A stretch of DNA of 64,000 bases from Mustelus asterias (GCF_964213995.1 NC_135809.1:48856001-48920000), one strand, 5' to 3'; shown: positions 2,846 through 59,061, counted from the stretch's first letter. A program made the numbers and translations. The notes: a model not told the origin generated them from the letters alone.

Positions 2846-2946
2846 AAATGTTTTGAATTTAAGCATACATAACATTTATAACAAAAAAAGATGATGCATA
2901 TACTACAGGTGGCATGATCAATGCCTACCTTGAAGCCACAACATAC

Positions 2947-3157
2947 CTTCCAATGCATGAAAAAGGAGATCAAAATCTTCTTTTGTCTTCGGATTCATCC
3001 TTCTTTCATACTGCCTCTTTATGTAATTTTGCTTTTCCAATTTAATTTTCAATTCTTGTTCCTGTTCCCATTGCACCCTCCTATTCTTTTGCATTCTCAG
3101 TTGCTGAACATAATTCTTCGCAGCCCAGCGTCTAAAGTAGGTCTGCAGCACAATTGT
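2947..3157 (-). CDS. IQUB: IQUB IQ-motif exon ([14 protein letters not shown]...[19 protein letters not shown])
   Basis: IQ calmodulin-binding-type motif [11 protein letters not shown] followed by coiled coil. 211 nt, phase 0-1. Confidence 0.95.
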
Positions 3158-9800: not shown

Positions 9801-10512
9801 GGGAAACAGACAAGCCCGAAAGAACACCATCTAGATCCTGAACAGAAGATGAAGCGCAGCTTGAGCAGGTAAGCGAAACCTATATTTTGATTTTCCCTCA
9901 CCATTCTTCCCTTCAAAAACCAAATGACAATTCAGCTGAGAATGAAAGTTTGAGTGAGAAATTGCAGTACATCTCCTACTATTCCTCAGTACAGCATGTT
10001 TGTACACGAAAACAGCATATGATTGGTTGTTCAAAGACCTTAAGATATCTTTGTGAGACAAAGTGTGCTAACAACCATGGTTCTGAGGCTTCTGGTTCCA
10101 AAATCTACTTTTACTTATACCTGGTCAGATACTTCTGAGCCAGTAACATGGAACAAGCTGTCCACACAGCTTGAATGGAAATGGAGCCAGCAGGTCATCA
10201 TTATAATTTTCAACTCTTTAACAAGAATACTTGCATGAAAATGTGATTGCCCTTTGTAATTAAAATATGGCCTAGTCACAGAATTATTCTCTGTATGCAT
10301 CAAGAATCAAATAAACACAAAACTGATCATATGCCTGCAGTGTCCAGGGTTAAAAAGATACAAAAGGTCAAGAATGAAACAAAAGGTAAATTTTCTCATG
10401 AATTCCTCAAGGATCCTAATTCTTCCATTAAAACATTAATTGCTGTTCAGTTTTGCATTCTTGTACAAATCTAAATCGATTTATCAGGTCTCTAATATCC
10501 CTTTTGCATTAC

Positions 10513-10680
10513 CTGTATGAACTCTGACAGTTATCACATCAGAGGTGGCAGATTCCCGCTGTGGTCTAATTAGTTTGATTGGGAATTTTTCAGGTTCAGT
10601 AGATGCCAGTTCAATCTGAATAGAGCCATGCGGTCTGACTCCTAAATCTACAAGCGTTTCAGAATCCTTAGCCGTTCTGC
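10513..10680 (-). CDS. IQUB: IQUB ubiquitin-like domain exon B (SRTAKDSETLVDLGVRPHGSIQIEL...DVITVRVHT)
   Basis: gttttag|GCAGA...ACAG|gtaatg. 168 nt. ETLVDLGV ubiquitin-like motif. Confidence 0.92.
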
Positions 10681-10860
10681 CTAAAACATAAGAAAATCAA
10701 CACTCAAATTTTCATTAGATGCTGAAGCCTTAGGAATATGTATCAATATGAGGTTCAAAACTTCTGGCATTCATTCAAAATGAAAATTGCACAACATTCC
10801 TAATATAATTAAGAAATGCAAATCCAAATCTTCATGACATTTTAAAAAGTATACGGTTTA

Positions 10861-11180
10861 ACAACTTGTATTTATATAGCACCTTTAACATAATCAAGCA
10901 TCCCAAGGTGCTTCACAGCAGTATTTTAAAGCAAAATTTGACACCATGACACATATGGTGATATGAAGGAGAATGGTCAAAAGCTTGGTCAAAGAGGTAA
11001 GTTTCAAGGAGCACCTTAAAGGAGGAGAGTGGATGAGAGGTTTAGGGAGGAAATTCTGAGCTTAGGGCTTAGGCTGCTGAAGGCAAAGCCACCAATGATA
11101 CAGTCATTAAAATTAGGAATAATATTGGCCTGAATTAGAGGAATGTAGGTATCTCAGAGGATTGTGGGCTAGAGAAGTTT
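10861..11180 (-). mobile_element. Old L2-type 3' end / L2-tailed SINE remnant
   Basis: Minus strand ends ...AAAGGTGCTATATAAATACAAGTTGT. Related tails at ~6449-6650, ~25375-25515 and ~37270-37413. Confidence 0.6.
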
Positions 11181-11389
11181 GGAATTCTGATATGTCATTA
11201 TCTCCAAATAATTTAAGATCATAACATTAAGTCTTTCTAAAGCTTCAGGTTACAAGACCTGTTCCTGTTTGTCTGTAACATGAGAAAGAAGAAATATATA
11301 CTTCAGCCTTCTTCCAGTTATGCCAAGTTTCTTGCACAACAATTTGGCTCTTCAATCAACATATCTCTCAGATTTCTCTGGATACTGGG

Positions 11390-11517
11390 GGGCGGGATTT
11401 TACAGCCTCATTCATTCTGAAACCGTAAAATCACGCTTGAGGTCAACGGGCCTTCTCATTTTCTGCTCCTCGCCTGCTCCGATTCCCGTGGTAGGCGGGG
11501 CGGTAAAATTCCGGCCC
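11390..11517 (+). mobile_element. MITE-like element (Harbinger-type TIRs)
   Basis: TIR GGGCGGGATTTTAC...GTAAAATTCCGGCCC. Homologous copies at 4270-4390 (+) and 20521-20642 (-). Confidence 0.7.
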
Positions 11518-13017
11518 AGGTATCCAAGAATAAAATTGTAGACTTCAACTCTCTAAGCAGTGAAACAGGCATTGGCCTCCGCAACTTCAAACAATCAATA
11601 TCCTGAGCAGAGCTCCATCACAAAACCATCGGTAGGGCAGGCGGGCAAATACTGCCCTGCCAGCAACTCCGAACATTCTTGTACATAAGGTTTACAAGAT
11701 TATGAAAACATCCCACAATAAAGGTAATACTGGGAGGCTGATGGTGCCCATTAGTCAGTATGCCCTCTCCCCACAACAGTGGAGTAACAATCTCTCAAAG
11801 GACTCATTGCAAACTGCTTCAGATCAGATTAAAAAGGCCTCGTTGAAACAGGTAAGCTTCATCCATAAATACATTAAAGAAATCGGGCAGATTTTTATGA
11901 GATTTTTTCTAAGTGTCCGGCTAGCATGAGAACAAGAGAGTTGTTAATCCATTTTTTGGGCGAGTTTTCACTCCCAATTTTATGCACTTAGTATCTGAAC
12001 ATATTGGCTAGTCTGTTTCTAGCCACTAGAGGCTGTGAACGGGGCCTAATTCATCAGATAGCCAGCATCTCAGATCAGAGTCACGAACAAACTGCGCTTG
12101 CACAGAAAAAGCTCAAAAAAGCAGCTCTGCTGAGAGAACACCCCCAGGCCAGATACAGTCTCATCCTCCCACCCCCCCCCCCCCCCTCCCACAGACATTG
12201 GAGGCTCTCCCCCAACATTACTGACCCCCTTACCCACTCCCCCCCCACCCTGGACCGCCTTGCACAAGGCCCCATCATCATCCCCCGGCCCAGATGGCTG
12301 ACAACCCCCTGCCCCACCACCCACCCATCAGTAAACCTGCAAATGCTGACTTGGCTTCATGGTTACAAGGCATGACTGCTTTTAACTCGCTGGAATGCTC
12401 TAACGGGCACCTGACTTGCCCAAACTGTCTGCAGCTGATCTGCCCTAACAAGAGACAGCTCCATAAAAACCCCAAGAATGAACAGGCAGTGCAGGAAGAA
12501 ATGATCTCCAGGAAGACACCTCCCCAGTTTCCAGATGCGGATCTGGCCAGGTTGATGGAGGCAGTGGAGGCAAGGAAGGAAACCCTCTTCCCCCGCCATC
12601 CCAGGGGAAGGGATGGAAATGCAACCTGGGAGGTGGTAGCAGCATGTGTTAGTGCCAGGGCACTGGCCAGGAGAACCGGGAAGCAGTGCTGCAATAAACT
12701 GAATGTCCTAATCATGGCAGCAAGGGTGAGTGTTTTGCCTCATCTAGCATCTTACCCCTAAATGATCCCCCCCACCCCAGCACCCTGCATGCATTCAGCC
12801 CCTGACCCCTCCAAGCACCTCCCCTCTCCCAGCCAAGAGTATCACAACCCTTGCCCTCTGAGGGCCAGCCCCTGAAATCCTGCAGGACTCGTGCCATCAG
12901 ATTTTACATGGCTCCTTTTGTCCCGATGTGGAGATACCGGCGTTGGACTGGGGTAAACACAGTAAGAAGTTTAACAACACCAGGTTAAAGTCCAACAGGT
13001 TTATTTGGTAGCAAATG

Positions 13018-13056
13018 CCACTAGCTTTCGGAACAGGCTGTCCCTTCATCAGATGG
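13018..13056 (-). ncRNA. Minimal type-I hammerhead ribozyme motif (sense to IQUB pre-mRNA)
   Basis: CCAT-CTGATGA-A-GGGACA(GCC)TGTTCC-GAA-AGCT-A-GTGG. Confidence 0.68.
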
Positions 13057-13115
13057 AGTGGAGAAATGCTCACAAACTGTTCGTGAGAATTTCCACTCCA
13101 TCTGACATTTCCACT

Positions 13116-13152
13116 CCATCTGACGAAGGAGCAGCGCTCCGAAAGCTAATGG
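13116..13152 (+). ncRNA. Minimal type-I hammerhead ribozyme motif
   Basis: CCAT-CTGACGA-A-GGAGC(AGC)GCTCC-GAA-AGCT-A-ATGG: helix I CCAT/ATGG, palindromic AGCT helix III, CUA triplet. Confidence 0.72.
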
Positions 13153-14338
13153 TATTTGCTACCAAATAAACCTGTCGGACTTTAACCTGGTGTGGTTAAA
13201 ACTCTTACTGTGTTCACCCCAGTCCAATGCCGGCATCTCCACATCATCCTGTCGCTGACAGCTTGGAGGACTCCCCGGAGGAAGCGGATGAAGAGACCTC
13301 CGAGACCGGTGCCAGTTTTACGTCAGCTTCTACCTCACAACTCACCATCACAGAGACTCTCACATCGGTGGGTCAAGTTAGTGGTGAGGCATCTGGGTCA
13401 CTCTCTGGTGAGCACGACACATGTGCTGATGTACATTGGGTGGAAACGGGAACGTCCGAAGCCTCTGGCATGCGGAGGCCTGCCAGATGCGAGGACTCAG
13501 CTGGCCCCAGGCTACATGCTGGGCCTCTGAGATCACTTCTCCCTCAGCTGCTGGAGATGCAGCAGCAGAGCCAAGGAATGTAGGAGGGGCAGACAGCAAC
13601 ACTGGCTGTTGGGAGGAGTGCCAAAGTTTTCAGGTAGACCAGCTATTGCCTGGATGGTTCCCAGGCCAACACTGCAAGGGTGGCGTCTGTGGTGAAAAGC
13701 CTGGGGCAGGAGATCCTCACCATGAGAGCAGGCTCCAAGCAATGGCCGAGTCACAGAGGGCCACAGCCCAGTCACAGTGGACCACAGCTGAGGGCATCAA
13801 CAGGCTTCTCAAGATTCTGCGGCCCATGGCTGAGAGGCACATGGACTTCAGGGGTTAGATATTTCTCCACCGGTGCATGAAAGGTTTGGTTACTGAACTG
13901 ATAAAAGGCATTGAGAAAATAAAAGGCTAATCTGAAGGCTGATAATGAGAGAGCACAGACTTGAGGTAATCACAGAAATAATTCAATGGAAAGTTAAGAA
14001 AATCAGGTACTTGGAATGTGGAATTCTCTGTCACAAACTGCTATTCCAACACAGTACGTGAGTACTTTCAAAAAGTTTGAAATAATGGGTGGGATTTTTC
14101 TCCCTCTCCGTGGTGTGTTTTGCGGAGGTGGGAGATTGGCAGCAAGATTTTAGCGAGTGTAGTACTCAGAATGCTGGTACAGTAAGTAGTAGTGGGCTTA
14201 GAGAAGGCATATGCCAATAAAAACATTGGCACAAAACCGATGGGGCAAAATGACCAATCTCACAATACCTTTGATAACAATTCAGTAAACACACACACCA
14301 TTTCTTTCACACAATTTCTTTAATTGCTTCAGACTTAC

Positions 14339-14473
14339 TATCGCATGTTATTTGCAATTTTTGCGCTGGCACTTTCAGCTCCTTTCCAAATTGCTGTTTT
14401 AGCTTTCCCGCTGTAAGGCAGATGGGGAGTGCCACGGTCATGACATCACCAGATGGAAGCAGGGCGACTTTAA
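14339..14473 (-). CDS. IQUB: IQUB ubiquitin-like domain exon A (VKVALLPSGDVMTVALP...LQITCD)
   Basis: aatttag|TTAAAG...GATA|gtaagt. 135 nt. Recognisable similarity to the IQUB UBL domain. Confidence 0.9.
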
Positions 14474-14964
14474 CTAAATTTAAAAAAATACACAAAAATT
14501 AGTTTGAGCACCTAAAAAAAATCTGGTAGTGTTTTATTGAATTGCAACTCAAATTACCTATTTATGGTCATTTTGTGTTTATAAACAGTTAATGGTTAAT
14601 ACCAACGCTCCCTCCAAAGATTTGCATATTTAAGAAAAATGTTTTGGTATCAATATTAACTGGAAGGGCACTTCTGTAGAATTCAAAATTCTTCTCTGTA
14701 AATTTTGATCATTGCTTATCAGCTTTCTGATGTGCAGAAGTACAAACAACTTATGAATATTCAGTAGTTCAATGCAAATTCTAAATTTTGACAAATTTTT
14801 CAAACCATTACATACCATTCTGTAGCCAAACATAATACTGGTTAAAATTGTGAAATACAATTATAACTCTTACTGTCAAATCAGTTGATTTTATAAAACA
14901 CATAAATTGAACCACACAACATTTTTCTGGTAATTCGTCAGATCAACCATTTGGCAGTCATTAC

Positions 14965-15099
14965 CTGTGGCTGTACTACTTGCAATGTCTGGTGTTGGGG
15001 TCTTTGGTAGTGGAGGATATGACTGCAGTACTGATCTCTTTTTTAAGTCTCTGTCAGAAGCACTTGGCAGAGTTGGATAAACTAAGCAGTCAGCAGTTC
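14965..15099 (-). CDS. IQUB: IQUB exon preceding the ubiquitin-like domain (GTADCLVYP...DIASSTAT)
   Basis: ctcttgctgtttag|GAAC...ACAG|gtaatg. 135 nt. Ends in SSTAT, matching the SLAT|VKV junction recalled for vertebrate IQUB. Confidence 0.82.
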
Positions 15100-15980
15100 C
15101 TAAACAGCAAGAGGGAGAAAATTTTAGAAGAATGTAATATTTAAAAGATAAGAAGAAACACACAGTTGGTGCAATACAGAGAGATGGGCTCCTTTGATTC
15201 ACATCCTATCTGTTTAGAATCACAGAATCCTACAGTGCAGAAGGAAGCCATTCGGCCCATCAAGTCTGCACCAAGCACAATCACACCCAGACCTATCCCC
15301 ATCACCCCATGCATTTACCCTAGCTAGTACCCTTACACTAAGGGGAAATTTAGCATGGCCAATCTACCTAACCTACACACCTTTGGACTGTGGGAGGAAA
15401 CTGGGGCACCCGGAGGAATCCCACGCAGACACGGGGAGAATGTGCAAACTCCACACAGACAGTGACCCAAGTCAGGAATCGAACCCGGGACTCCGCGCAG
15501 TGAGACAGCAGTGCCACCATGCCACTGTGCCACATGCCACTCGAAGTTTGTATGTCCAAAGATTGTTAGGTATGTGTTGTTTACAACAATCAATTCATAC
15601 ATGTGTCCTTTCAAATTTTAATTGACTGAAATGAATACAAAACCAAGTTCCATTGTATTTGTGTCTTTCTCCTCTCCTGTTTTAGTGAAAGATGTTTTAT
15701 TAGCTATAGTTGACCCCTTGCTGGGTTCTATGTGCACTAGTCACCAACTTCAAATATTGGTACATGAGTCTTGATTAAAAGTTTCAAATGTGCTATTTAA
15801 CTATGGGAGAGAACATGGCTGTGCCTTATACTGGCCTCACCAGATTTTCACATTGTGATCATTGGAAGCCCCAACAGATGCAGGAATCCTGGCTGAATTT
15901 CCCTATTTTTAACCCAGGATTCTATGGACAATTGTAGTGCTTCCGCCATTGGCCTGACTGAAGGTAACTAATGGTAGTCA

Positions 15981-16224
15981 TGATGTGGAGATGCCGGCGT
16001 TGGACTGGGGTAAACACAGTAAGAAGTTTAACAACACCAGGTTAAAGTCCAACAGGTTTATTTGGTAGCAAAAGCCACACAAGCTTTCGGAGCTCTTAGC
16101 CCCTTCTTCAGAGCCAGGGGCAATCTCACCTGAAGAAGGGGCTAAGAGCTCCGAAAGCTTGTGTGGCTTTTGCTACCAAATAAACCTGTTGGACTTTAAC
16201 CTGGTGTTGTTAAACTTCTTACTG
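15981..16224. mobile_element. Penelope-like inverted repeat, second copy, hammerhead motif at 16127-16163
   Basis: Same arm sequence as 12925. CAC-CTGAAGA-A-GGGGCT(AAG)AGCTCC-GAA-AGCT-T-GTG. Confidence 0.78.
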
Positions 16225-18222: not shown

Positions 18223-19359
18223 TTTTTTTATTCATTCATGGGACATGGGCATCGCTGGCTGCCCAGCATATATTGCTCATCCCTAGTTGCCCTTGAGAAG
18301 GTGGTGGTAAGCCACCTTCTTGAATCACTGCAGTCCACTGCTGTGGGTTGATCCAAAATGCCGGGGAGGGAATTCCAGGAATGGCGATATATTTCGAAGT
18401 CAGGATAGTGAGTGGCTTGGAGGGAAACTTACAGGTGGTGATGTTCCCATGCGTCTGCTGCCCTTGTCCTTCTAGAAGGAAGTGGTCATGGATTTGGAAG
18501 ATGCTGTCTAAGGATCTTTGGTGAATTGCTGCAGTGCATCTTGTAGATAGTATACACTGCTGCTACTGAGTGTCGGTAGTGGAGGGAGTGGATGTTTCTA
18601 GATGTGGTGCCAATCATGCAGGCTGCTTTTTCCTAGATGGTGTCAAGCCTCTTGAGTGCTTTGGAGCTGCACCCATCCAGGCAAATGAGGAATATTCCAT
18701 CACACTCCTGACTTGTGCCTTGTAAATGGTGGATAGGCTTTGGGGAGTCTGGAGGTGAGTTACTCGCTGCAGTATTCCTAGCCTCTGACCTGCTCTTGTA
18801 GCCATGGTGCTTATGTGGTGAGTCCAGTTTAGTTTCTGGTCAATGGTAACCCCAAAGATGTTGACAGTAGGGATTCAGTGATGGTAACATCTTGAATGTC
18901 AAGGGCGGTGGTTAGAGTGTCTCTTATTGGTGATGGTCATTGCCTGGCATTTATGTGACGCGAATATTACTTGCCACTTGTCAGCCCAAGTCTGGATATT
19001 GTCCAGGTCTTGTTGCATTTGAACATGGACTGACGGTTTCAGTATCTGAGGAGTTGCGAATGGTGCTGAACATTGTGCAATCATCGGCAACCATTTCCAC
19101 TTCTGACCTTATGACGGAGGGAAGGTCATTGATGAAGCAGCTGAAGATGGTTGGGACTAGGACACTACCCTGAGGGATTCCTGCAGAGATGTCCTGGAGC
19201 TGAGATGACTGACCCTCCACAACCCCAACCATCTTCCTATATACCAGGTATGACTCCAACCAGCAGAGAGTTTGCCCCCTGATACCCATTGATTCCAGTT
19301 TTGCTAGGGCTCCTTGGTCGAATGTGGCCTTGATGTCAAGGGCTGTCACTCTCACCTCT
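18223..19359 (-). mobile_element. L2/CR1-group LINE 3' fragment with 11-bp target-site duplication
   Basis: RT motifs ALDIKATFD, GIPQGSVL, YKAQVRSVMEY; GAATGAATAAAA tail. Flanked by CTTCAGGGTGT/CTTCAGGGCGT. Other copies at ~35880-36395 and ~48150-48850. Confidence 0.85.
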
Positions 19360-19429
19360 CTTCAGGGCGTCCGAAGCAGGATTCTTCAGGGTGGCAGTAT
19401 CCGGATCAAAAACCCTTATCGTCACAAGG

Positions 19430-20197
19430 ATTTGATTTGATTTACTATTGTCACATGTATTAGCATACAGTGAAAAGTATTATTTCTTGTGCACTAAACA
19501 GACAGAGCATAACGTTCATAGAGAAGGAAACGAGAGAGTGCAGAATGTAGTGTTACAGTCATAACTAAGGTGTAGAGAAAGATTAACTTAATGCAAGGTA
19601 GGTCCATTCAAAAGCCTGATGGCAACAGGGAAGAAGCTGTTCTTGAGTGGTTGGTACATGACCTGAGACTTTTGTATCTTTTTCCCGACGGAAGAAGATG
19701 GAAGAGAGAATGTCCGGGGTGCGTGGGGTCCTTAATTATGCTGGCTGCTTTGCCGAGGCAACGGGAAGTGTAGACAGAGTCAGTGGATGGGAGGCTGGTT
19801 TGCATGATGGATTGGGCTACATTCATGACCTTTTGTAGTTTCTTGCGGTCTTGGGCAGAGCAGGAGCAATACCAAGCTGAGATACAGCCAGAAGGAATGC
19901 TTTCTATGGTGCATTTGTAAAAGTTGATGAGAGTCGTAGCTGACATGCCAAATTTCCTTAGTGTTCTGAGAAGGTAGAGGCGTTGGTGGGCTTTCTTAAC
20001 TATAGTGTCAGCATGGGGGGACCAGGACAGGGTATTGATGATCTGGACACCTAAAAACCTAAAGCTCTCGACCCTTTCCACTTCATCCCTGTTGATGTAG
20101 ACAGGGGCATGTTCTCCTCTACGCTTCCTGAAGTGACAGGGGGATGTTCTCCTCTACGCTTCCTGAAGTCGATGACAATCTCCTTCGTTTTGTTGAC
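19430..20197 (-). mobile_element. Rex1/Babar-type LINE 3' fragment
   Basis: KTKEIVIDFRK...ERVESFRFLGVQI...VKKAHQRLY...SGKRY; (AAATC)n tail. Confidence 0.85.
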
Positions 20198-35824: not shown

Positions 35825-36446
35825 TTGTCTGCATAAAATAGGTTAAATCCTTAAGACAACCCTTAAATATTGAGTGCAACCCCATTTTATTTTATTCACT
35901 CAGAGTGTGGACATTTCTGTTTACCCACTCTTAATTGCTTTTCAGGAACTGATGGTGAGTCAGCTTCTTTAACCGCTGTACTTTCTGTGGCAAAGATACA
36001 CCCACAGTCCTATCAGGGATGAAGCTCCAGAAGTTTGATCCAGTTACAGTGAAGTATCACTAATATATTTCCAAGTTAGGATGGTGTGTGAGTTGGAGGT
36101 GAACCTGCAGGTGGTGGTGTTCCCATGTGCCTTTTGACTTTGTTCTTCCAAGTGGTAGAGGTTGCAGGTTTGGAATGTCCTGTCGAAGAAGCTTGGCAAG
36201 TTACAATGACGCATCTGAAAGATTTACACACTGCAGCCATAGTGCGTCAATGGTAGAGGGAAGTGAGTGTTTAAGTTGGTGGATGGGGTACTGATCAAGT
36301 GATATACTTTGTTCTGGATGGTGTCAAGCCTTGCTAGTTTTATTGGAGCTGCACTCACCCAGGCAAAGGAGAGTATTTCACCTTAACCCTGATTTGGAAT
36401 AAACGTGTCAATTCACCTAATGGTACAATACTTTTAAAATGTAGAA

Positions 36447-37192
36447 ACCAGGAATGAGATAGAGAATCTGGTGAACTGGTGCGGCAACAATAATCTCTCC
36501 CTCAATGTCAACAAAACAAAGGAGATTGTCATTGACTTCAGGAAGCGTAAAGGAGAACATGCCCCTGTCTACATCAATGGGGACGAAGTAGAAAGGGTCA
36601 AGAGCTTCAAGTTTTTAAGTGTCCAGATCGCCAATAATCTGTCCTGGTCCCCCCATGCTGACACTATAGTTAAGAAAGCCCACCAACGCCTCTACTTTCT
36701 GAGGAGACTAAGGAAATTTGGCATGTCAGCTACGACTCTCACCAACTTTTACAGATGCATCATAGAAAGCATTCTTTCTCATTGTATCACAGCTTCATAT
36801 GGCTCCTGCTCTGCCCAAGACCGCAAGGAACTGCGAAAGGTCGTGAATGTAGCCCAATCCATCATGCAAACCAGCCTCCCATCCATTGACTCTATCTATA
36901 CTTCCTGTTGCCTCGGCAAAGCAGCCAGCATAATTAAGGACCCCATGCCCCCCCGACATTCTCTCTTCCACCTTCTTCCTTCGGGAAAAAGATACAAATG
37001 TCTGAGGTGGACATTTTGAATGGACTTACCTTGCATTAAGTTGATCTTTCTCTACACCCCAGCTATGACTGTAACACTACATTCTGCACTCTCTCATTTC
37101 CTTCTCTATGAATGGTAGGTTTTGTCTGTATAGCGCGCAAGAAACAATACTTTTCACTGCTTGTTAATACATGTGACAATAATAAATCAAAT
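36447..37192 (+). mobile_element. Rex1/Babar-type LINE 3' fragment
   Basis: WCGNNNLSLNVNKTKEIVIDFRK ORF (36471-37019) and matching tail. Confidence 0.88.
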
Positions 37193-41100: not shown

Positions 41101-44100
41101 CACAGGGGGCAGCCCAGGGGACAATGTCACTGTCCCTCTGCACTCCCAATTTGCCTCATCGAGTCACAGCACTGAGGGTGGCAATGCAGAGCACAATATC
41201 CCTTTGCACTCCCAACTACAACTGACAAGCTACCTCAGAATCACATAGCACACAGGGTGTCTGTGCAAACTCTCCCAAAGAAACAACTTGCCCTTAGTTT
41301 AAAATTTATTTATTAATGTCACAAGTGGGCTTACATTAACACTACAATGAAGTTACTGTGAAAATCCCCTAGCCACCACACTCCAATGTTCAGGTACACT
41401 GAGGGAGAATTTAGCATGGCCAATGCACCTAACCAGCATATCTTTTGGGCTGTGGAAGGAAACTGGGGCACCCAGAGGAAACACACGCAGACACAGAAAG
41501 AATTCCGCACATACAGTGACCCAAGCCAGGGATTGAACCCGGGTCCCTGGCGCGATGAGGCAGCAGTACTAACCACTGTGCCACCATGCTGCCCATCGAG
41601 CCCCTCAACACTGTGCAATTAAGTCTATATTGCCACTCGCTGGTGCATGGTCTACTGAGGGCTGAGAGTTTACAATTTTGAAACACTTCAGTCCCACATT
41701 ACATCCCCTATAACTGCATATTAATGCTCCCATGTCCAGTTGCTCTCAAATTTCTTTGTGAACTAATTCCACCACCCTTTCAAGTCACTTGGCCCTAATA
41801 CTAACAGCTGCATTAAGAAATATCTCACTTCCCCCTCTTAATTCTTTTGCTAATTATTTTAAAACTATAATCTCAGGTTTACCAACCCACTTTTTTTTTC
41901 ATGGGATATGAGCATTGCTGGCAAGCAATGGCGGACTTGCACTTTGTGGGACCCTGCACTCACCTTAATTTCTGCCCCCTGCCCAATGACATTTGCATTT
42001 CAAATGCAAAATAGTTATTGGTCTTACTATAGTCAATGTTCACCCCAGCTGTGAACAAATGATGCCAGAATATTAAAAGAGAATTTAGTACATACCCTCA
42101 ATGAAGGTCCTTTTTAAGTTAATAAGCAACAGTGATCGAACATACCTAATTTCATTAGATAGTAAATGCTAGTGTAAAATGATATTGTGATCCTATACAA
42201 AATGCAGCCTGCAGGCAGCTTTTCAGTACCGTAACATAATCAACAGTAATAATATTCTGAGAGTTTGTCTAATATATCACCAGAGAACACTTGAGCCATA
42301 GGGTGGCCACTCATTTACTTAACTTGCCCTGAAAGTAACGAGATTGGCACAAAAAGCCTCTATCAGGATTATATGCAATTAGCTGGTTCTTTCCTCTGTA
42401 CCACAAACACTAATCCCCAAGAAATACAATGCAGAGAACTGAGGAAAAATAAAATGCTATTCAGTTTCTATCCACTCTTGCATTAAGACACATTTTAGAG
42501 TTACAAGTCAATGCAAACCTAAAATAATCTTTTATCGTTTGCAAATAAAATGGAAAGCCAGGGCGACCTCCTGAAAGATTTCAAACCAGATCATTCTCTA
42601 CTTGCGCCACCAAGCCATGAATCTTGCATCACCGCCACTATCACCCACCCCCCGCCATCTTTGTTTCATCACATTGTTACCCGGGCGACGGCACAGTTGG
42701 CTCAGAGTTTTGCCCTGTATTTTTTTAAAAATTCAATCCAGAGCTTGATGCAGTGCTGGTACACACTTTAGATCACAATCAACTGAACTTTTGCGCACAA
42801 AATATCTCCCAAACATATGCTGAAACTCTTCCCCCACACACACAATCGTCTCAATCTCTCTCCCTCACATACATACTCTTTCATACCCACACAGGCTCCT
42901 CAACAGCTTTCATAGTTACTCGCGTACACACACTTATTCCTCCATTTCCCTCACGCACGCTCACACAACCTCAATCTCTGAACCTCACAAACACACACCT
43001 CAGTCACTCGCACACTTCTCTCAATCTCTATCCCTAACTCAGTTTTTATCGTGAAATCTCTTGGACATTACTCAAACTGTTAAAACACTCCAACAAAGCA
43101 TTGATCCTTAATGAAGTACGCACAGTTAGAAGTCTCACAACACCAGGTTAAAGTCTGACAGGTTTATTTTGAATCACAAGCTTTTGGAGCGCTGCTCCTT
43201 CATTGAAGAATAATCTTTTATTCTCTCCATGTTCGGGTGAGCTTCCTCCAGGTGTTCCGGTTTCCTCCCATAGTCCAATGATGTGCAGGTTAGGTTGATT
43301 GGCTATGGTAAATTGCCCCTTAGTGTCAGGGGGATTAGCAGGGCAAATGTATGGGGTTACAGGGATAGGGCCTGGGTGGAATTATTGTCAGTGCAGGCTG
43401 GATGGGCTGAATGGCCTCCTTTTGCACTGTAGGGATTCTATGAATAATCCTAGCTTCTTCAGTCTCACCAAATACTGACCTCCCTCATCCTCAGCATCAT
43501 CTTGGTAAACCTGCCTTGTACCCTTACCAGAGACTTGACATTCTTCCTGAAATGTGGTGCTCTGTTATACACAATACTCCAGCTGAACCCTTCGGGACTT
43601 GTAAAGGTTTAACAGGACTTCCTTGTTTTTGCATTCAATGCCCCTCTTTACAAAGCTAAGTATCCCATACACTTTCTTACCCACCTCAGCTAGCCCTACC
43701 ACCTTTAAAGTTGTATATGCACCCACAGACTCCTTAGTCCTTGCATTACCTCAAAAAACTATTGAGATATTTTCTACCAGCCCCTTTTCCAAAATATCAT
43801 AAATGCTACCCACCATTGAGCAACACACCTTATAAATGAAAAGCAAAATGCAGCAGATGCTGGAAATAGGAGAAAACAAATTATAAATAAAAACCAGATT
43901 TTTTAGCATACTTTGCAGATAATTGTTTTCTTTACATTTTATCAAAAATTGATGTGGAGAAAATAAAGATTGTAATGTTAAGAGGCACCATAATAAACTG
44001 AAACACATGTAACCCTAAAAATAATTGGGCAGTAGTTTTTGGAAAGACACATGCAATGACAAAATTCCCTTCACCTCTATTCCAGAGCAAAAACTTATTT

Positions 44101-46968: not shown

Positions 46969-48042
46969 CCATTAATAATGAACCTGTGCAGTATGAAGTT
47001 AAAAAGGGGCACAGTTGGGTAAGTGGTTACAAACTAATATGAGGAAATAAGTATTTTGTATTATCAGCTTCCAACATTTTACTGCAATGGTCGTTTTGGT
47101 TATTCTGAATGGGACAGAATTTGCACGTCACACATATACCACGTATTTCCCTTTAACATGGATTCATGAATAAACCTCAAGTGATGCCATCAGTCAACAA
47201 TTCTGTATCATTGTATATAAAGAGTGTTGAATATTTGACCAGCACTGTCACCTCAATACATTACGGAAATAGTTTTTTAAAAAATTTGATTTGGACATGG
47301 ACTGCTTCAGTTACTATGTTGTTGTGAATGGTGCTGAACATTGTGCCATCATCAGTGAACATTCCCACTCTTGACTTTATGATGGAAGGAAGATGGAGTG
47401 GTAATATGTTCTTTCCGAGAGTTGTTGAGACTCGATTAGCCGAATGGCCTCTTTCTGCACTGTAGGAATTCTATGGATTCTATGTTAAAAATTGTGTGTG
47501 GGCTAGACAGAGTAGATAAGGAGAAACTCCTTGCAAAAGGATCGAGGACGAGAGGGTACAGATTTAAAGTGATTTACAAGAGAAGCATGTGATGAGAGAA
47601 AAACCCTTTTTACACGAGTGGTTTGTATTCGGAATGCGCTGCCTGGAAGTCTGGTGGTGGCAGGTTCAATCAAGGCATTCAAGAGGCCATTGGATGATTG
47701 TAGAAACAATGTGCAAGGATCCGAGGAAAAGGCAGGAGAATGGCACTGAGTCATACTGCTCGTTGGAGAGCCGGTGCTGACGTGATGGGCCAAATGGGTA
47801 GGTTGCAAATGTTACAGAATATGTAGTTATATAATCCAAACAGAACTCTACAAACAAAATCTGGACTAAATAATTGTAGACAATGAACATGAGATGCAGG
47901 ATGACAATGATATTGTAGGATGGAGTCCTCTCCATTTTGAGGGGAAATTCGTAACATGGTAATTCCTTTTGTTGCTAGAATTCTGTATTAAATACATTCC
48001 TTATTTTCATCTAGAGCTTTAAATACTTCAGCAGTGACATAC

Positions 48043-48108
48043 CTGTGAAATGACTTCCTCTATCTGCCCACAGTTGATTTTGTCTTCTAATTTTTGAACA
48101 TCACGCTC
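48043..48108 (-). CDS. NDUFA5: NDUFA5 exon 4 (ERDVQKLEDKINCGQIEEVISQ)
   Basis: ttgcag|GAG...CAG|gtatgt. 66 nt. Confidence 0.97.
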
Positions 48109-49328
48109 CTGCAATATATAACACAGAACACTTGTGTACAGGGCCTCACTTCCCGTAGGTATACCAACAGTGCTGTTAGGAAAGATGTTCCAGGATTTTA
48201 ATCTAGTGATAGTGAGGGAATGGTAATATAGATCCAAGTCAGGATGGTGTGAGACTTGAAGGACAACTTGTAGGTGATAGTGCTCCCATGCATTTGCTGC
48301 CCATGTTCTTGTCGGTGGTAGAGATCACAAGTTTGGAAGGTGTTGTTGAAGGAGGTTTGGCAAATTGCTGCAGTACATCTTATAAATGGTGCCCACTGCT
48401 GCCATTGTCCATCGGAGTTGGTGGGGAATGTTTAATGTGGTGGATGGAGTGTTGGTCAAGGAGCTTGTTTTCTCCTCCAAATTCTTGAATGTTTTTGGAG
48501 CTACACACATTCAGGCAAGAGAAGAGTATTTCATCACACCCCTGACTTATGCACTGTGGTTGGTGGTGGGGTTTGGGAAGTCAGGAGGTGAGTTACCACA
48601 AAATTCCAAGCTTCAGATCTTTTGTAGTCATAGTATTTATATAGCTGGTCCAGCTAAGTTTCTGGTCAATGTCAACCACCAGAATGCTGAAGGTTGGAGA
48701 ATTCAGCAATGGCAATGCCATTCAACATTAAGGGAAAATTGAGAGATTCTCTCTTGTTGCAGATGGTTATTGCCTGGCACTTGTGTGGTGAGAATATGAA
48801 TTGTTACTTAACAGCATAAGGCTGAATGTTGTCTTGGTCTTGCACATGTTTGGCTGCTGGGGAATGAAATAAATCTGAACCTATCACAGAGTGTAAAACA
48901 AGACAAGCTAAGTAAAGAAATTCAGAGTGGCTCAGCAAATCACTTACACATATAAAGTATATTTCCAGTAAAATTAGCATTACTATTATGGAAAAACGTT
49001 CCTTAAATATCTTTAGATATAGTTTTCAGTATCACTTTATTAACCTTGATCTCTACAGTTGTCCAAAAGGTATATGCAATATTCAAATGTTTTCTCCCGT
49101 TAAACATTGAAAAAATGCTTTTCATTTGCTGCACAACATGCATTTTCAACTATTTTAATGCCATAAGCTAAGTGATATATCACATTTTTAAAATCAATTC
49201 TGTAAAACTTAAGATTTAAGGGCAGGATTACAGGTCTTGAAAAATACTCAAATGAAACATAACCAATCCACTTGGCAAACAATACACTATCCATTAAAAA
49301 CATAGTCAGTTAAATCAAACTACCTTAC

Positions 49329-49445
49329 CGATTTTACCAAGTTAAACCGTTCATTGATGGTCTGCTCAGTGTACTTCCTATAGGCTGCATCCTGAGGGAT
49401 GGATTGCAGGACAGTAAGAATTCTGGAGTACAAAATTCTCAATGT
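49329..49445 (-). CDS. NDUFA5: NDUFA5 exon 3 (TLRILYSRILTVLQSIPQDAAYRKYTEQTINERFNLVKS)
   Basis: tactttcag|ACA...TCG|gtaagg. 117 nt. AAYRKYTEQ motif. Confidence 0.97.
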
Positions 49446-49749
49446 CTGAAAGTAAACAACACAAAAAACATTGGAGCATTCACTCTCACGTGACTTATTT
49501 CCCTTTCGGTCTTCCCAAACTTTCACTGGCAAGCATGACAGGCTGCAGGGAAGTTCCTGCCAGTCTCATCAGATAGCTGTTTACATCGTTCACTAGTCTC
49601 CAGTTTTCCCTTTTGCCAAGAAACATTCATCTCCTACCTGCTGCCTCCCAGTTTCTGTACCTGTTTGAAATTAGGGGCTATTCCAGTCATATAATTAAGT
49701 TTAAAACTAGTGGCAGCAATAGATTCTATTTAGGTGTGCAAGTTAAAAG

Positions 49750-51242: not shown

Positions 51243-52705
51243 CATAGAACATAGAACAGTACAGCACAGAACAGGCCCTTCAGCCCACAATGTTGTGCCG
51301 AGCTTTATCTGAAACCAAGATCAAGCTATCCCACTCCCTATCATCCTGGTGTGCTCCATGTGCCTATCCAATAACCGCTTAAATGTTCCTAAAGTGTCTG
51401 ACTCCACTATCACTGCAGGCAGTCCATTCCACACCCCAACCACTCTCTGCGTAAAGAACCTACCTCTGATATCCTTCCTGTATCTCCCACCACGAACCCT
51501 ATAGTTATGCCCCCTTGTAATAGCTCCATCCACCCGAGGAAATAGTCTTTGAACGTTCACTCTATCTATCCCCTTCATCATTTTATAAACCTCTATTAAG
51601 TCTCCCCTCAGCCTCCTCCGCTCCAGAGAGAACAGCCCTAGCTCCCTCAACCTTTCCTCATAAGACCTACCCTCCAAACCAGGCAGCATCCTGGTAAATC
51701 TCCTCTGCACTCTTTCCAGCGCTTCCACATCCTTCTTATCGTGAGGTGACCAGAACTGCACACAATATTCCAAATGTGGTCTCACCAAGGTCCTGTACAG
51801 TTGCAGCATAACCCCACGGCTCTTAAACTCCAACCCCCTGTTAATAAAAGCTAACACACTATAGGCCTTCTTCACAGCTCTATCCACTTGAGTGGCAACC
51901 TTTAGAGATCTGTGGATATGAACCCCAAGATCTCTCTGTTCCTCCACAGTCTTCAGAACCCTACCTTTGACCCTGTAATCCACATTTAAATTAGTCCTAC
52001 CAAAATGAATCACCTCACATTTATCAGGGTTAAACTCCATTTGCCATTGCAATAACAAAAGACACCGAATTGTGGTCACTATCTCCAAAGTGCTCTCCCA
52101 CAACCAAATCTAACACTTGGCCCGGTTCATTTCCCAGTACCAAACCCAATGTGGCCTCACCTCTTGTCGGCCTATCCACATATTGTGTCAGGAAACCCTC
52201 CTGCACACACTGCACAAAAACTGCCCCATCCGAACTATTTGACCTACAAAGGTTCCAATCAATATTTGGAAAGTTAAAGTCCCCCATGACAACTACCCTG
52301 TGACCCCCACACATATCCATAATCTGCTTAGCAATTTCTTCCTCCACATCTCTATTACTATTTGGGGGCCTATAGTAAACTCCTAACAACGTGACCGCTT
52401 CTTTCCTATTTCTAACCTCAGCCCATATTACCTCAGTGTGCAGATCCCCCTCGAAGTGCCTTTCCGCAGCCGTTAAACTATCCTTGATTAACAATGCCAC
52501 TCCTCCACCTCTTTTACCAGCTTCCCTACACTTACTGAAACATCTATACCCCGGAACGTCCAACAACCATTCCTGTCCTTGTTCTACCCACGTCTCCGTA
52601 ATGGCCACAACATCGTAGTCCCAAGTACCAATCCACGCCCCAAGTTCATCTACCTTGTTCCGGATGCTCCTTGCATTGAAATAGACACACTTCAACCCAC
52701 CTTCC
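51243..52705 (-). mobile_element. Young CR1 (HER1-like) LINE with internal ORF2 deletion
   Basis: APE endonuclease (YFNARSIRNK, VAITETW, VVMGDFNFP, SDHNSV) joined directly to the RT C-terminus (WQMEFNPDKCEV...YRTLVRPHLEYC); (TTCTATG)n tail. Confidence 0.92.
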
Positions 52706-52861
52706 TGTCATATTTGTCTTCTTACATGGGATTTATAGTAAAGAATTTAACATTGACAAATACTGTACTAGATCATACCTCAATCCATACATATACATTT
52801 TACAACACATAGAATCGTACATGGTACAGAACTCAAGACAAAAAAAATAACAAAAACACAC

Positions 52862-57500: not shown

Positions 57501-58924
57501 TAACCTATTTTTGATGGACCAAGCTTCTGTGTCCATCAGGTGATGAAGGAGCAACACTCTGAAAGCTCATGATTCCAAATAAACCTGTTGGACTTTAACC
57601 TGATGTTGTGAGACTGCTTACTGAGTAAATAGAGACAGTGGAGGGATTGAGGTAGATAATAAAGAGATAGGGCCAGTTATTTTGAGAATACATTTGGTAT
57701 TGATCACAAATCCGTGGACGATATCAGCATGGGCAGTATTTGGACAAGGAAGAGGAGGGGGCAGAAATAGATAGTTGGGGGAGCTCCTAATGAAAAGGTT
57801 GCAAAGAGATGGAACTGTTTTGGGTACAATCTGATAGATAAACATGGAATCATGCAAGGGATAGCCCCACTAAGTTGGGTAACATAGGAGAGGCTGTGAA
57901 GGAGGATAGTTTGGTTTTTCATGTCAAAGGTTACAGAGAGGAGAGATAATGCCCATGATTACAATCACAGAGGCTGCAATTTTTGACTGAGTGCCTTTTC
58001 AGTAATGTGACAAAGGCAGAAAGCTCATTGGAGAGATTCATTTGTGGAGTTGAGGAAAAATGGGACATGGATTTGGGAGAGGCCAGCATGTTCAAGAATT
58101 TTGGAGAAATAATGGAAATTGGAGATGAGGGTAGTTTTCAAGAACCAAGGGAGTTAGACTGGAGTTTCTGAGGAACTGGTTATGATGGCATTTTTTAACA
58201 TGGGAGAGGGGGTGCAACACCTGAATTCAGGAAATAACTTACAATATTAGCTTCAAGAGAGGAAACAGGTAGTCAGCAGTTTAGTATAAATAGAGTCAAG
58301 GGAGCAGGGGAGTAAATCACAAGAGAGTGGGCAGAGGAGAAATGGAAACAAAATAGATTCAGAACTAGGGCAAGTGGCAGTCTAGAAGAAGGGTTTTGTG
58401 GGGAAGAAACAGAAGCAGAAAATTGGATGAATGGATGTGTTAAACTTAGTAACAAATTTATTCCATCAGCTCTTTGCACTTTTGGAAGGGTCTGGGACAG
58501 GGTTTATTACTTAAAACTCTGTCTGTCAAAAGCCTCCTCAATGTGTAACTCTTTAACCAACTTATCAGTCATGTTCCATAACTCGTGTTCAATCAATACT
58601 TATCCAGTTATTTTAATTTCTGTTTTGTGCTTTGGAGCATGTTAATATATTAGATGGATATCATTACTGTAAGAAAGGACATCATATAAAACTTTTTAAA
58701 GCGAACTTAAGTTTAAATTGAAGCAGACAGACAGAGGTTCAAAGAACGCTTGAAGAAATTAGGCACAGCTCTTGGGGCTAAAGGGATCAAGGGATATGGA
58801 GGGAAGCCGGGATCAGGAGATAAAATTTAATGATCAAATCATAAAGAAAATGAATAGTGGAGCTGGCTCAAAGGGCCGAATGGCCTTCTCCTGCTTCTAT
58901 ATTCTGTAGAATCACAAAGTCTTG

Positions 58925-59061
58925 AATCACAAACCCACTCACCTGATGAAGGAGCAGTGCTCCAAAAGCTTGTGATACCAAATAAACCTGTTGGACTTTA
59001 ACCCGGTGTTGTGAGACTGCTTATGTGCCCACCCCAGTCCAATGCCGGCATTTCCACATCA
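58925..59061 (+). mobile_element. Single Penelope-like arm with decayed hammerhead (GAAA>AAAA)
   Basis: TCAC-CTGATGA-A-GGAGC(AGT)GCTCC-AAAAGCT-T-GTGA...CCACATC. More decayed copies at 57536-57622 (+) and 43120-43203 (-). Confidence 0.72.

Follow-up and report, generated by a model that had tools for sequence, protein, structure and literature searches.

The window analysed here, 64,000 nucleotides of the Mustelus asterias genome, contains at 12925-13245 a 321-bp inverted repeat, with one minimal type-I hammerhead ribozyme per arm. The locus raises the question of whether such a palindrome is itself a mobile, ribozyme-processed unit, as the earlier note had supposed, or a product of the insertion of another element, and of what its ribozymes do. 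The evidence reported below indicates that the unit very probably consists of two 5'-truncated ends of Neptune-type Penelope-like elements (PLEs) of different subfamilies, placed head to head and likely derived from the fused outer halves of insertions about 325 bp apart, with both hammerheads predicted to be silent. By itself, the locus is an ordinary, slightly scrambled Penelope insertion. The comparison with its relatives bears on two wider points: whether the weak minimal hammerheads of PLEs cleave in vivo, and how inverted one-tailed insertions are formed.

Structure of the palindrome

The two arms (12925-13032 and 13138-13245), each of 108 nt, are 92% complementary, and an inner pair (13037-13062/13110-13135) lengthens the inverted repeat. 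On the plus strand, CCAU (13116-13119) and CUGACGA (13120-13126), followed by an A, provide helix I and the core; helix II (GGAGC/GCUCC, 13128-13140), GAAA (13141-13144), GCUA, the predicted cut after 13148 and AUGG make up the remainder. The minus strand reads CCAU (13056-13053), CUGAUGA from 13052, helix II GGGACA/UGUUCC, GAAA, GCUA, the predicted cut after 13022, and GUGG. Both motifs have the features of a minimal type-I hammerhead, namely the CUGANGA and GAAA core, a NUH triplet, an extra base before helix II and the G10.1-C11.1 pair. The palindromic unit with its two ribozymes, as described in the earlier note, was confirmed by inverted-repeat and motif checks; the palindromic AGCU helix III was found in both arms, and the positions given for the two cuts agree with the motif checks. 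An Rfam search of the region 10000-16000, with E-values up to 10, returned no hammerhead family, the matches being chance hairpin and miRNA models. The motif was seen again in 184 cores among the retrieved loci, and is therefore not a chance occurrence.

Table 1. Features of the palindrome and of its surroundings (positions counted from the first letter of the window).
Feature	Position	Strand	Basis and remarks
IQUB exon frame downstream of the unit	10487-10696	-	residues 182-236 of 9fqr_Ij, E 6.5e-06
Host repeat, left part	12225-12924	+	weak Myb/SANT-like frame (PF13837, E 0.0016, below cut-off); 13 of the 14 other copies are 76-89% identical
Left arm of subfamily B, helix II GGGACA-GCC-UGUUCC; 3' end comprising pLTR, hammerhead and tail, 5'-truncated	12925-13078	-	97-99% identity over 153 nt to 11 other places
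Left-arm tail, about 35 nt	12925-12958	-	two-tailed units rare (3 of 110)
Left-arm minimal type-I hammerhead, predicted cut between 13022 and 13021	13018-13056	-	motif inspection and folding
Central junction: some 10 nt similar to the left-arm end as copied by fold-back, then an 18-nt duplicate of the right-arm start (13089-13106)	13079-13106	+	repeat comparison
Right arm of subfamily A, helix II GGAGC-AGC-GCUCC; 3' end comprising pLTR, hammerhead and tail, 5'-truncated	13107-13247	+	96-98% identity to arms of L002, L004 and L006
Right-arm minimal type-I hammerhead, predicted cut between 13148 and 13149	13116-13152	+	motif inspection and folding
Right-arm tail, about 35 nt	13212-13247	+	in relatives, the tail runs as far as the ATG that opens the element's reading frame
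Host repeat, right part	13246-13480	+	in intact copies, 305-330 bp from the left part
IQUB exon frame upstream of the unit	14310-14498	-	residues 135-181 of 9fqr_Ij, E 0.9 (weak alone, but adjoining the next exon in the protein)

No coding part is present in the unit itself. In its centre lies an 18-nt direct duplication (13089-13106/13107-13124), which the earlier note did not mention. Comparable patchwork junctions are found in relatives, such as L004 and L012, and the central junction is likely, judging from its sequence, to be a templated end-joining insertion.

The minus-strand frames on either side of the unit match consecutive residues of the IQUB protein (Table 1), and another frame matching IQUB was found at 2921-3157 (E 5e-18). 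The protein was identified from solved-structure sequences; a Pfam search, performed on 148 of the 324 frames of at least 60 amino acids, gave no IQUB family. These matches make the location in an intron of IQUB, a gene transcribed from the minus strand, well supported, as the earlier note had proposed. The palindrome is surrounded by the two parts of a host repeat, which we take to be Harbinger-like. Reads of three other organisms, compared with the locus, covered the repeats; among the pieces listed none spanned the stretch, so that no allele or orthologue of the window junction was seen.

Parent element and genomic relatives

In a relative, L023, the hammerhead region shared with the left arm is preceded by a frame with matches to reverse transcriptase (PF00078, E 1.8e-05) and GIY-YIG (PF01541, E 4.9e-04), both below the curated cut-offs; the frame stops about 225 nt before the hammerhead. 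The Penelope origin suggested by the earlier note is borne out by this arrangement. In the translation, GIY-YIG is preceded by a CX4CX2C linker, and two cysteines separate its GIY and YIG motifs. A CX2-5CXXC linker and GIY-YIG cysteines define Neptune/Nematis-type elements in the part of PMC8557442 consulted, and these sequence features place the parent among the EN+ PLEs of Neptune/Nematis type, the two not being told apart by a tree. Copies 97-99% identical to the left arm extend inward for up to kilobases. The tail is the outer end of the arm, and in L075 the sequence continues from the ATG at the tail end into an open frame. The outer ends of the relatives fall into two classes, about 70-75 and 105-108 nt past GAAA.

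Exact-match patterns, applied to the whole 3.68-Gb genome, found 12,774 places with head-to-head pairs in which both GAAAGCT boxes lie 40-200 nt apart, and 5,770 shorter ones; the reversed control gave 0. The element and the head-to-head layout are already known: an inverted 5'-truncated copy with a 30-40-bp tail was described in PMC8557442, pLTRs placed head to head in PMC3846280, and pairs of minimal hammerheads on opposite strands, 100-700 bp apart, in Schistosoma in PMC4209133.

A total of 123 loci was analysed. The pair was present in 111 of them, one of which, a duplicate of the window locus, was set aside to leave 110; L093 and L139 are one locus, counted twice. A target-site duplication with a score of at least 10, mostly of 12-14 nt, was found in 79 of the 110 units and in none of 400 mismatched controls. 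Exactly one arm is tailed in 78 of these 79 duplication-bearing units, as in all 45 unselected units. CAG occurs within 6 nt outside the duplication in the right flank of 48 of the 79 units and in the left flank of 58, over a background of 9%, which suggests a loosely palindromic CTG...CAG as the target of the family. Within a unit, the arms resemble each other: among 32 unselected units, the median number of non-CpG differences is 2 between arms of one unit and 9 between units. Subfamily B is paired with B in 302 places, and a looser pattern for B plus another subfamily gave 43 matches, point variants and truncations included. A miniature inverted-repeat DNA transposon was considered and rejected, since in all 45 unselected units the outer ends are unequal by about 35 nt, the inner ends vary, and the arms continue into the reverse transcriptase frame.

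Arms ending at the predicted cut site

Minimal hammerheads of PLEs reportedly need a second copy or a protein (PMC4209133, PMC6765202, PMC11167929, all consulted in part). Dimer cleavage is attributed to Luense et al. 2017, as cited in the review PMC6765202, and the part of PMC4209133 consulted describes in vivo evidence as lacking. The count that follows covers the short palindromes of the abundant subfamily C, which is neither A nor B of the window unit; their arms were assigned to four position classes, according to where the match to the element stops with respect to the predicted cut, between GCUU and GUG.

The match ends at the predicted cut in 1,044 arms (3 of the 100 listed are point variants that continue), one base short of it in 529 (24 of the 100 listed, by hand count, belong to another subfamily that continues), one base beyond in 215, and two or more bases beyond in 2,023. 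The fraction of arms stopping is 0.32 at the cut versus 0.14 and 0.10 at the adjoining positions. Chance extension of the cut-site ends alone would produce about 261 ends at +1, where 215 were observed; true ends just beyond the cut must therefore be scarce, and the distribution has the shape of a cliff.

Forty at-cut loci were retrieved, being the next in listing order among those not yet sampled, with point variants skipped. A duplication is present in 34 and a single tail in 39 of them; their junctions carry inserted bases in 26 cases, are blunt in 5 and show a 1-nt overlap in 9, longer overlaps being absent, and a hand count distinguished 29 different junctions. Over 90 loci, the cut-ending arm is tailed in 36 of 50 cases and untailed in 14 (p 0.003). 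Its partner extends at least two bases past the cut in 5 of 50 rows; when the arm in question itself runs past the cut, the figure is 72 of 100. These are hand counts on the rows listed, and a general correlation of arm lengths contributes to them. For subfamilies A and B, 12 of the 24 arms that reach the cut stop at 0 or +1; six of the 12 are one junction with a 2-nt overlap, so that the support from these subfamilies is weak. Probably only a small part of all arms stop at the cut; among incidental arms found in flanks 34 of 43 continue, a number too low for estimating it.

The accumulation of ends at the predicted cut likely records, as far as sequence patterns can tell, templates cut by the ribozyme in living animals. 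It could also arise without cleavage, from pausing of the reverse transcriptase at a fold, from a transcription start, from joining guided by overlaps or from the re-copying of a few short units. We regard this as rather unlikely, though several observations fit it: in an unselected short sample ends are also frequent 1-6 nt 3' of the cut, with positions -2 to -7 well filled among 97 arms, a 2-nt overlap accounts for the recurrent A-type junction, and some short junctions recur identically. Against it stand the 40 at-cut loci, with their many different junctions, their duplications and their lack of overlaps above 1 nt. Positions -1 and +1, moreover, share the same three end letters, yet hold 529 and 215 ends, and pausing at either helix I or helix III would presumably leave ends to one side of the cut, not on it. 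Elsewhere along the arms, 27 of 90 end in one 5-nt bin near the front edge of the hammerhead, a tentative cluster, as the reference for this figure is only 11 arms.

On balance we think it probable that the minimal hammerhead of these PLEs cuts the element RNA in the germ line, more than 1000 dated records of which would be preserved here as run-off cDNAs; that a single cut RNA, or a cleaved dimer, serves as the source of both arms of an insertion, the CTG...CAG target being two-fold symmetric; and that a completed palindrome is now and then copied again in its entirety, its tail then changing sides. The literature searched, largely from outside subscription journals, yielded no description of Penelope insertions that stop at the hammerhead cut, nor of a CTG...CAG target motif; the parts consulted of PMC6431247 and PMC9977147 had nothing on the cut-site question.

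A model for the insertion

The genome patterns, together with the published data on the Poseidon element PAc of the anole (PMC11167929, consulted in part), suggest the following course of events. A loosely palindromic CTG...CAG site would be nicked by the element protein on its two strands, with an offset of about 12-13 nt. The 3' ends so produced may then prime reverse transcription on element RNA, one at the end of the tail and the other about 35 nt earlier, both primings using one RNA or a dimer. The two cDNAs would halt early, or at the 5' end of the RNA, and be joined by end-joining with templated insertions. On a template cut by the hammerhead, the cDNA would run off at the cut site, and such run-off is the putative cause of the accumulation of arms at that position.

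In PAc, the protein, a predicted dimer, nicks and extends both strands, and starts at two RNA sites which bound the tail; the start sites lie about 60-100 nt 3' of the hammerhead cut, and the template is mainly uncut RNA. These traits resemble those proposed here. PAc differs in using AT-rich ATT sites, whereas the target here is CTG...CAG-like. PAc also gave no RNA-seq read ends at the cut site and required no cleavage in vitro (PMC11167929, same part), which counts against run-off at the cut; in the present genome some short arms end there.

Self-priming of the first cDNA by fold-back could likewise yield an inverted arm, with no second priming on RNA, as proposed in PMC3846280 (part consulted). 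This would explain that the two arms are usually of matching subfamily, and that the partner of a cut-ending arm seldom passes the cut. A strict fold-back is nevertheless disfavoured, because the untailed arm is longer on its 5' side as often as the tailed one (37 and 37 units, with 30 equal, although only 11 long reference arms were available); the tail is missing from 14 of 50 cut-ending arms, and the window unit, with arms of two subfamilies, could not be produced in this way at all. We consider this route improbable, and retain priming of both cDNAs on RNA.

Origin of the window unit

The window unit departs from its relatives in several respects. Its arms show 9 non-CpG differences from each other, and each of them only 1 from its nearest relative in its own subfamily. 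The A/B pairing, searched as an exact pattern, occurs once in the genome. The unit is among the 3 of 110 with both arms tailed, another being L002, which has two tails and a duplication. L117 repeats three exceptional traits of the window unit, the lack of a duplication among them, and its arms differ along their whole length.

The host repeat offers a way of assessing what was lost. In intact copies, the gap between the two flanks of the palindrome measures 305-330 bp in 13 cases out of 14, and 198 bp in the other. At the window unit, about 325 bp of host repeat are gone, and no target-site duplication was found, two features absent from the earlier note. CACAG is found just past the position of the left junction in 11 of the 14 intact host copies. 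The right junction of the unit has CAG outside, at the usual distance; the outer half-site on the left reads CAT instead of CAG, and on the right the host copies show no inner CTG. Since the inner CTG is absent on the right and the outer half-site is CAT on the left, two complete target sites are not proven.

The fusion of outer halves of two insertions, made at two sites, is the reading we prefer. A single insertion event is a possible though less likely alternative: two element RNAs would have been copied at two nicks about 325 bp apart, and the intervening DNA lost, in the absence of any earlier separate insertions. It would agree with the equal youth of the arms, each 1 difference away from its nearest relatives, with the templated duplication in the window junction, as in primary junctions, and with a right site devoid of an inner half-site. 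Mixed-template single events do occur: units with mixed helices, a duplication and one tail (e.g. L113, L122, L128 and L130) imply that one event can combine two templates. Against it, three of the four half-sites are present or nearly so, and two-tailed units make up only 1 of the 79 duplication-bearing insertions. Furthermore, the mixed units with a duplication have, for the most part, private changes in common downstream of helix II, whereas the window unit and L117 lack a duplication and differ over the entire arm. Both arms at the window locus would have been copied through an uncut hammerhead.

Folding of the unit and helix covariation

The folding of the RNA was predicted with proteins and splicing left out. 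The whole unit reaches -227 kcal/mol on the plus strand and -245 on the minus strand, corresponding to a z of about -26 on either strand, and none of 100 shuffles was equally stable. Helix II of the left arm has a predicted probability of 0.85 in isolation and of about 5e-9 within the whole unit; for the right arm, the values are 0.97 and at most 2e-8. Imposing helices I and II on the fold of the whole unit costs 30 and 45 kcal/mol. The competition between fold-back of the arms and ribozyme folding, anticipated by the earlier note, is thus resolved by the prediction in favour of the fold-back.

Wherever two arms lie head to head, transcription always reaches the antisense arm before the ribozyme arm. 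As each strand holds one ribozyme, placed behind its antisense copy, read-through RNA such as the IQUB intron is predicted to bury it: in transcripts of either strand, the IQUB pre-mRNA included, the arm made earlier would zip the ribozyme into a long duplex. Both hammerheads are accordingly modelled as silent at the window locus. A cis-dimer of the two ribozymes was also considered, and rejected, as they lie on opposite strands.

The covariation of the helices claimed for the two arms has to be read differently. The arms come from two source subfamilies, hence their helix differences are differences between subfamilies, and the claim does not stand for the arms compared with each other. It does stand at the level of the family, where the aligned sequences point to real covariation across subfamilies. 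In 12 hand-picked copies 96.8% of the cells are paired and 3 pairs have changed on both sides; none of 500 shuffles reached the cell count, while 191 of 500 reached the pair count, which makes the latter weak. Among the 184 cores, 11 of the 14 recurrent helix II types are fully paired. The extra position is A in 182 of 184 cores, and an equal number have A, U or C at H17; the cores were selected by the core pattern, so that conservation of the core itself is no test.

These results bear on the proposal of the earlier note that the two-armed unit itself is a non-autonomous, ribozyme-processed, retrozyme-like element. Both hammerheads are intact, and whole two-armed units sometimes occur twice, with the same junction and different duplications: L063 and L064 show 0 differences in a 59-nt centre, L081 and L102 show 3 in 124 nt, and L099 and L100 were matched by eye. 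The two copies of such a pair carry the tail on opposite sides. Long shared junctions amount to 2 pairs among 200 units, however, and gene conversion could explain them. With the ribozymes on opposite strands, no transcript holds two of them for a cis dimer or for the release of a monomer, and the one it holds is preceded by its antisense copy, with a helix II probability of at most 2e-8. Same-strand tandem repeats, the definition of animal retrozymes (PMC7229834; 10.64898/2026.07.22.740005, both consulted in part), are absent. The pairing of the arms is unique under the exact pattern, the best other full-length match reaching 87% among 40 scored of 3,934 candidates, and no sibling copy with the junction of the window unit was found. 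We therefore find a retrozyme-like nature of the unit very hard to sustain.

Comparison with known systems

The nearest counterparts are the Neptune/Nematis PLEs (PMC8557442; PMC3846280), with which the family shares the reverse transcriptase, the C-terminal GIY-YIG and the CX2-5CXXC linker (in the relative L023), the hammerhead within the pLTR, the head-to-head inversion and, in the relatives, the tail on one arm and the duplication of about 12 bp. The window copy differs from them in its two tails, two subfamilies, lack of a duplication and host deletion. The CTG...CAG preference and the accumulation of ends at the cut site do not appear in the consulted parts of these two papers.

The ribozymes resemble the PLE minimal hammerheads of PMC4209133 in the core letters, the extra base before helix II, the G-C closing pair, the loopless palindromic helix III and the short helix I; while that source, in the part consulted, is without in vivo evidence, the genome counts obtained here may be taken as an indirect in vivo footprint. 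Animal non-LTR retrozymes (PMC7229834; 10.64898/2026.07.22.740005) are similarly small, non-coding, Penelope-related and provided with a type-I hammerhead, but they are same-strand tandems yielding circular RNA, whereas the window unit consists of two inverted arms, each strand having a single ribozyme. A precedent for reading the accumulated ends as cleavage products is offered by R2 (PMC3774820), where the cut of an HDV-like ribozyme sets the 5' junction of inserted copies; ribozyme and element class are different there, and the copies marked by the cut are full-length in R2 and very short in the present family.

The genome contains more than 18,000 short head-to-head units, which makes cleavage in vivo a question that can be approached by counting. 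Three predictions follow for the in vitro system already established; they concern the step at the predicted cut, the relation of one arm to the other and the symmetry of the target motif. Such a layout further implies thousands of long hairpins, which would give double-stranded RNA within introns.

Junction sharing and mixed helix II

In three pairs of the two-armed units (Table), the central junction, where the arms meet, is common to both members, while their target-site duplications differ and the tail, an outer extension of about 35 nt, is found on opposite sides. In two of the three pairs the spacing is merely 1.7-1.8 kb. The combination of one junction, different duplications and opposite tails suggests either that entire palindromes were copied again or that gene conversion took place.

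Five other units (L113, L122, L123, L128 and L130) carry a duplication and one tail, and their arms differ mainly in helix II; private changes located further 3' are common to both arms. A template switch or a non-identical tandem source is a possible origin.

Cut-ending junctions and target preference

Among 40 of the subfamily C short palindromes having an arm that ends at the predicted hammerhead cut (L209-L248), the first base past the cut was scored at 29 ends of inserted-base junctions, and was T in 13, C in 11 and G in 5. The extra C may represent an untemplated addition at run-off.

In the 79 duplication-bearing units the duplication is mostly 12-14 nt long and tends to be closely preceded by CTG and closely followed by CAG, a symmetric preference such as a dimeric endonuclease would give.

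Genomic surroundings

The studied unit (window 12925-13245) is 321 bp long, close to the 305-330 bp of host DNA replaced, a near-equality probably due to chance. The NDUFA5 exons share the strand of IQUB and lie upstream of that gene; the two genes are likewise neighbours in human.

Table. Junction-sharing pairs, repeats and neighbouring exons
Feature	Location	Strand	Remarks
L063/L064 pair	G000:C1:460748 and 462533 (genome)		one common central junction
L099/L100 pair	C1:6759548 and 6761249		one common central junction (by eye)
L081/L102 pair	C1:4677031 and 6839645		one common central junction
Further copy, same Penelope family	window 15982-16224		typical one-tailed subfamily C palindrome with duplication
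Further copy, same Penelope family	window 43121-43201
Further copy, same Penelope family	window 57532-57626
Further copy, same Penelope family	window 58935-59060
LINE fragments	window 18984-20153, 36438-37016, 52033-52707		RVT_1, ALKBH8_N, endonuclease matches
Tandem satellite, roughly 50-bp period	L033:5800-8100 (fetched locus)		adjoins several repeats
NDUFA5 exons	window 48031-48324 and 49323-49565	minus	PF04716 match
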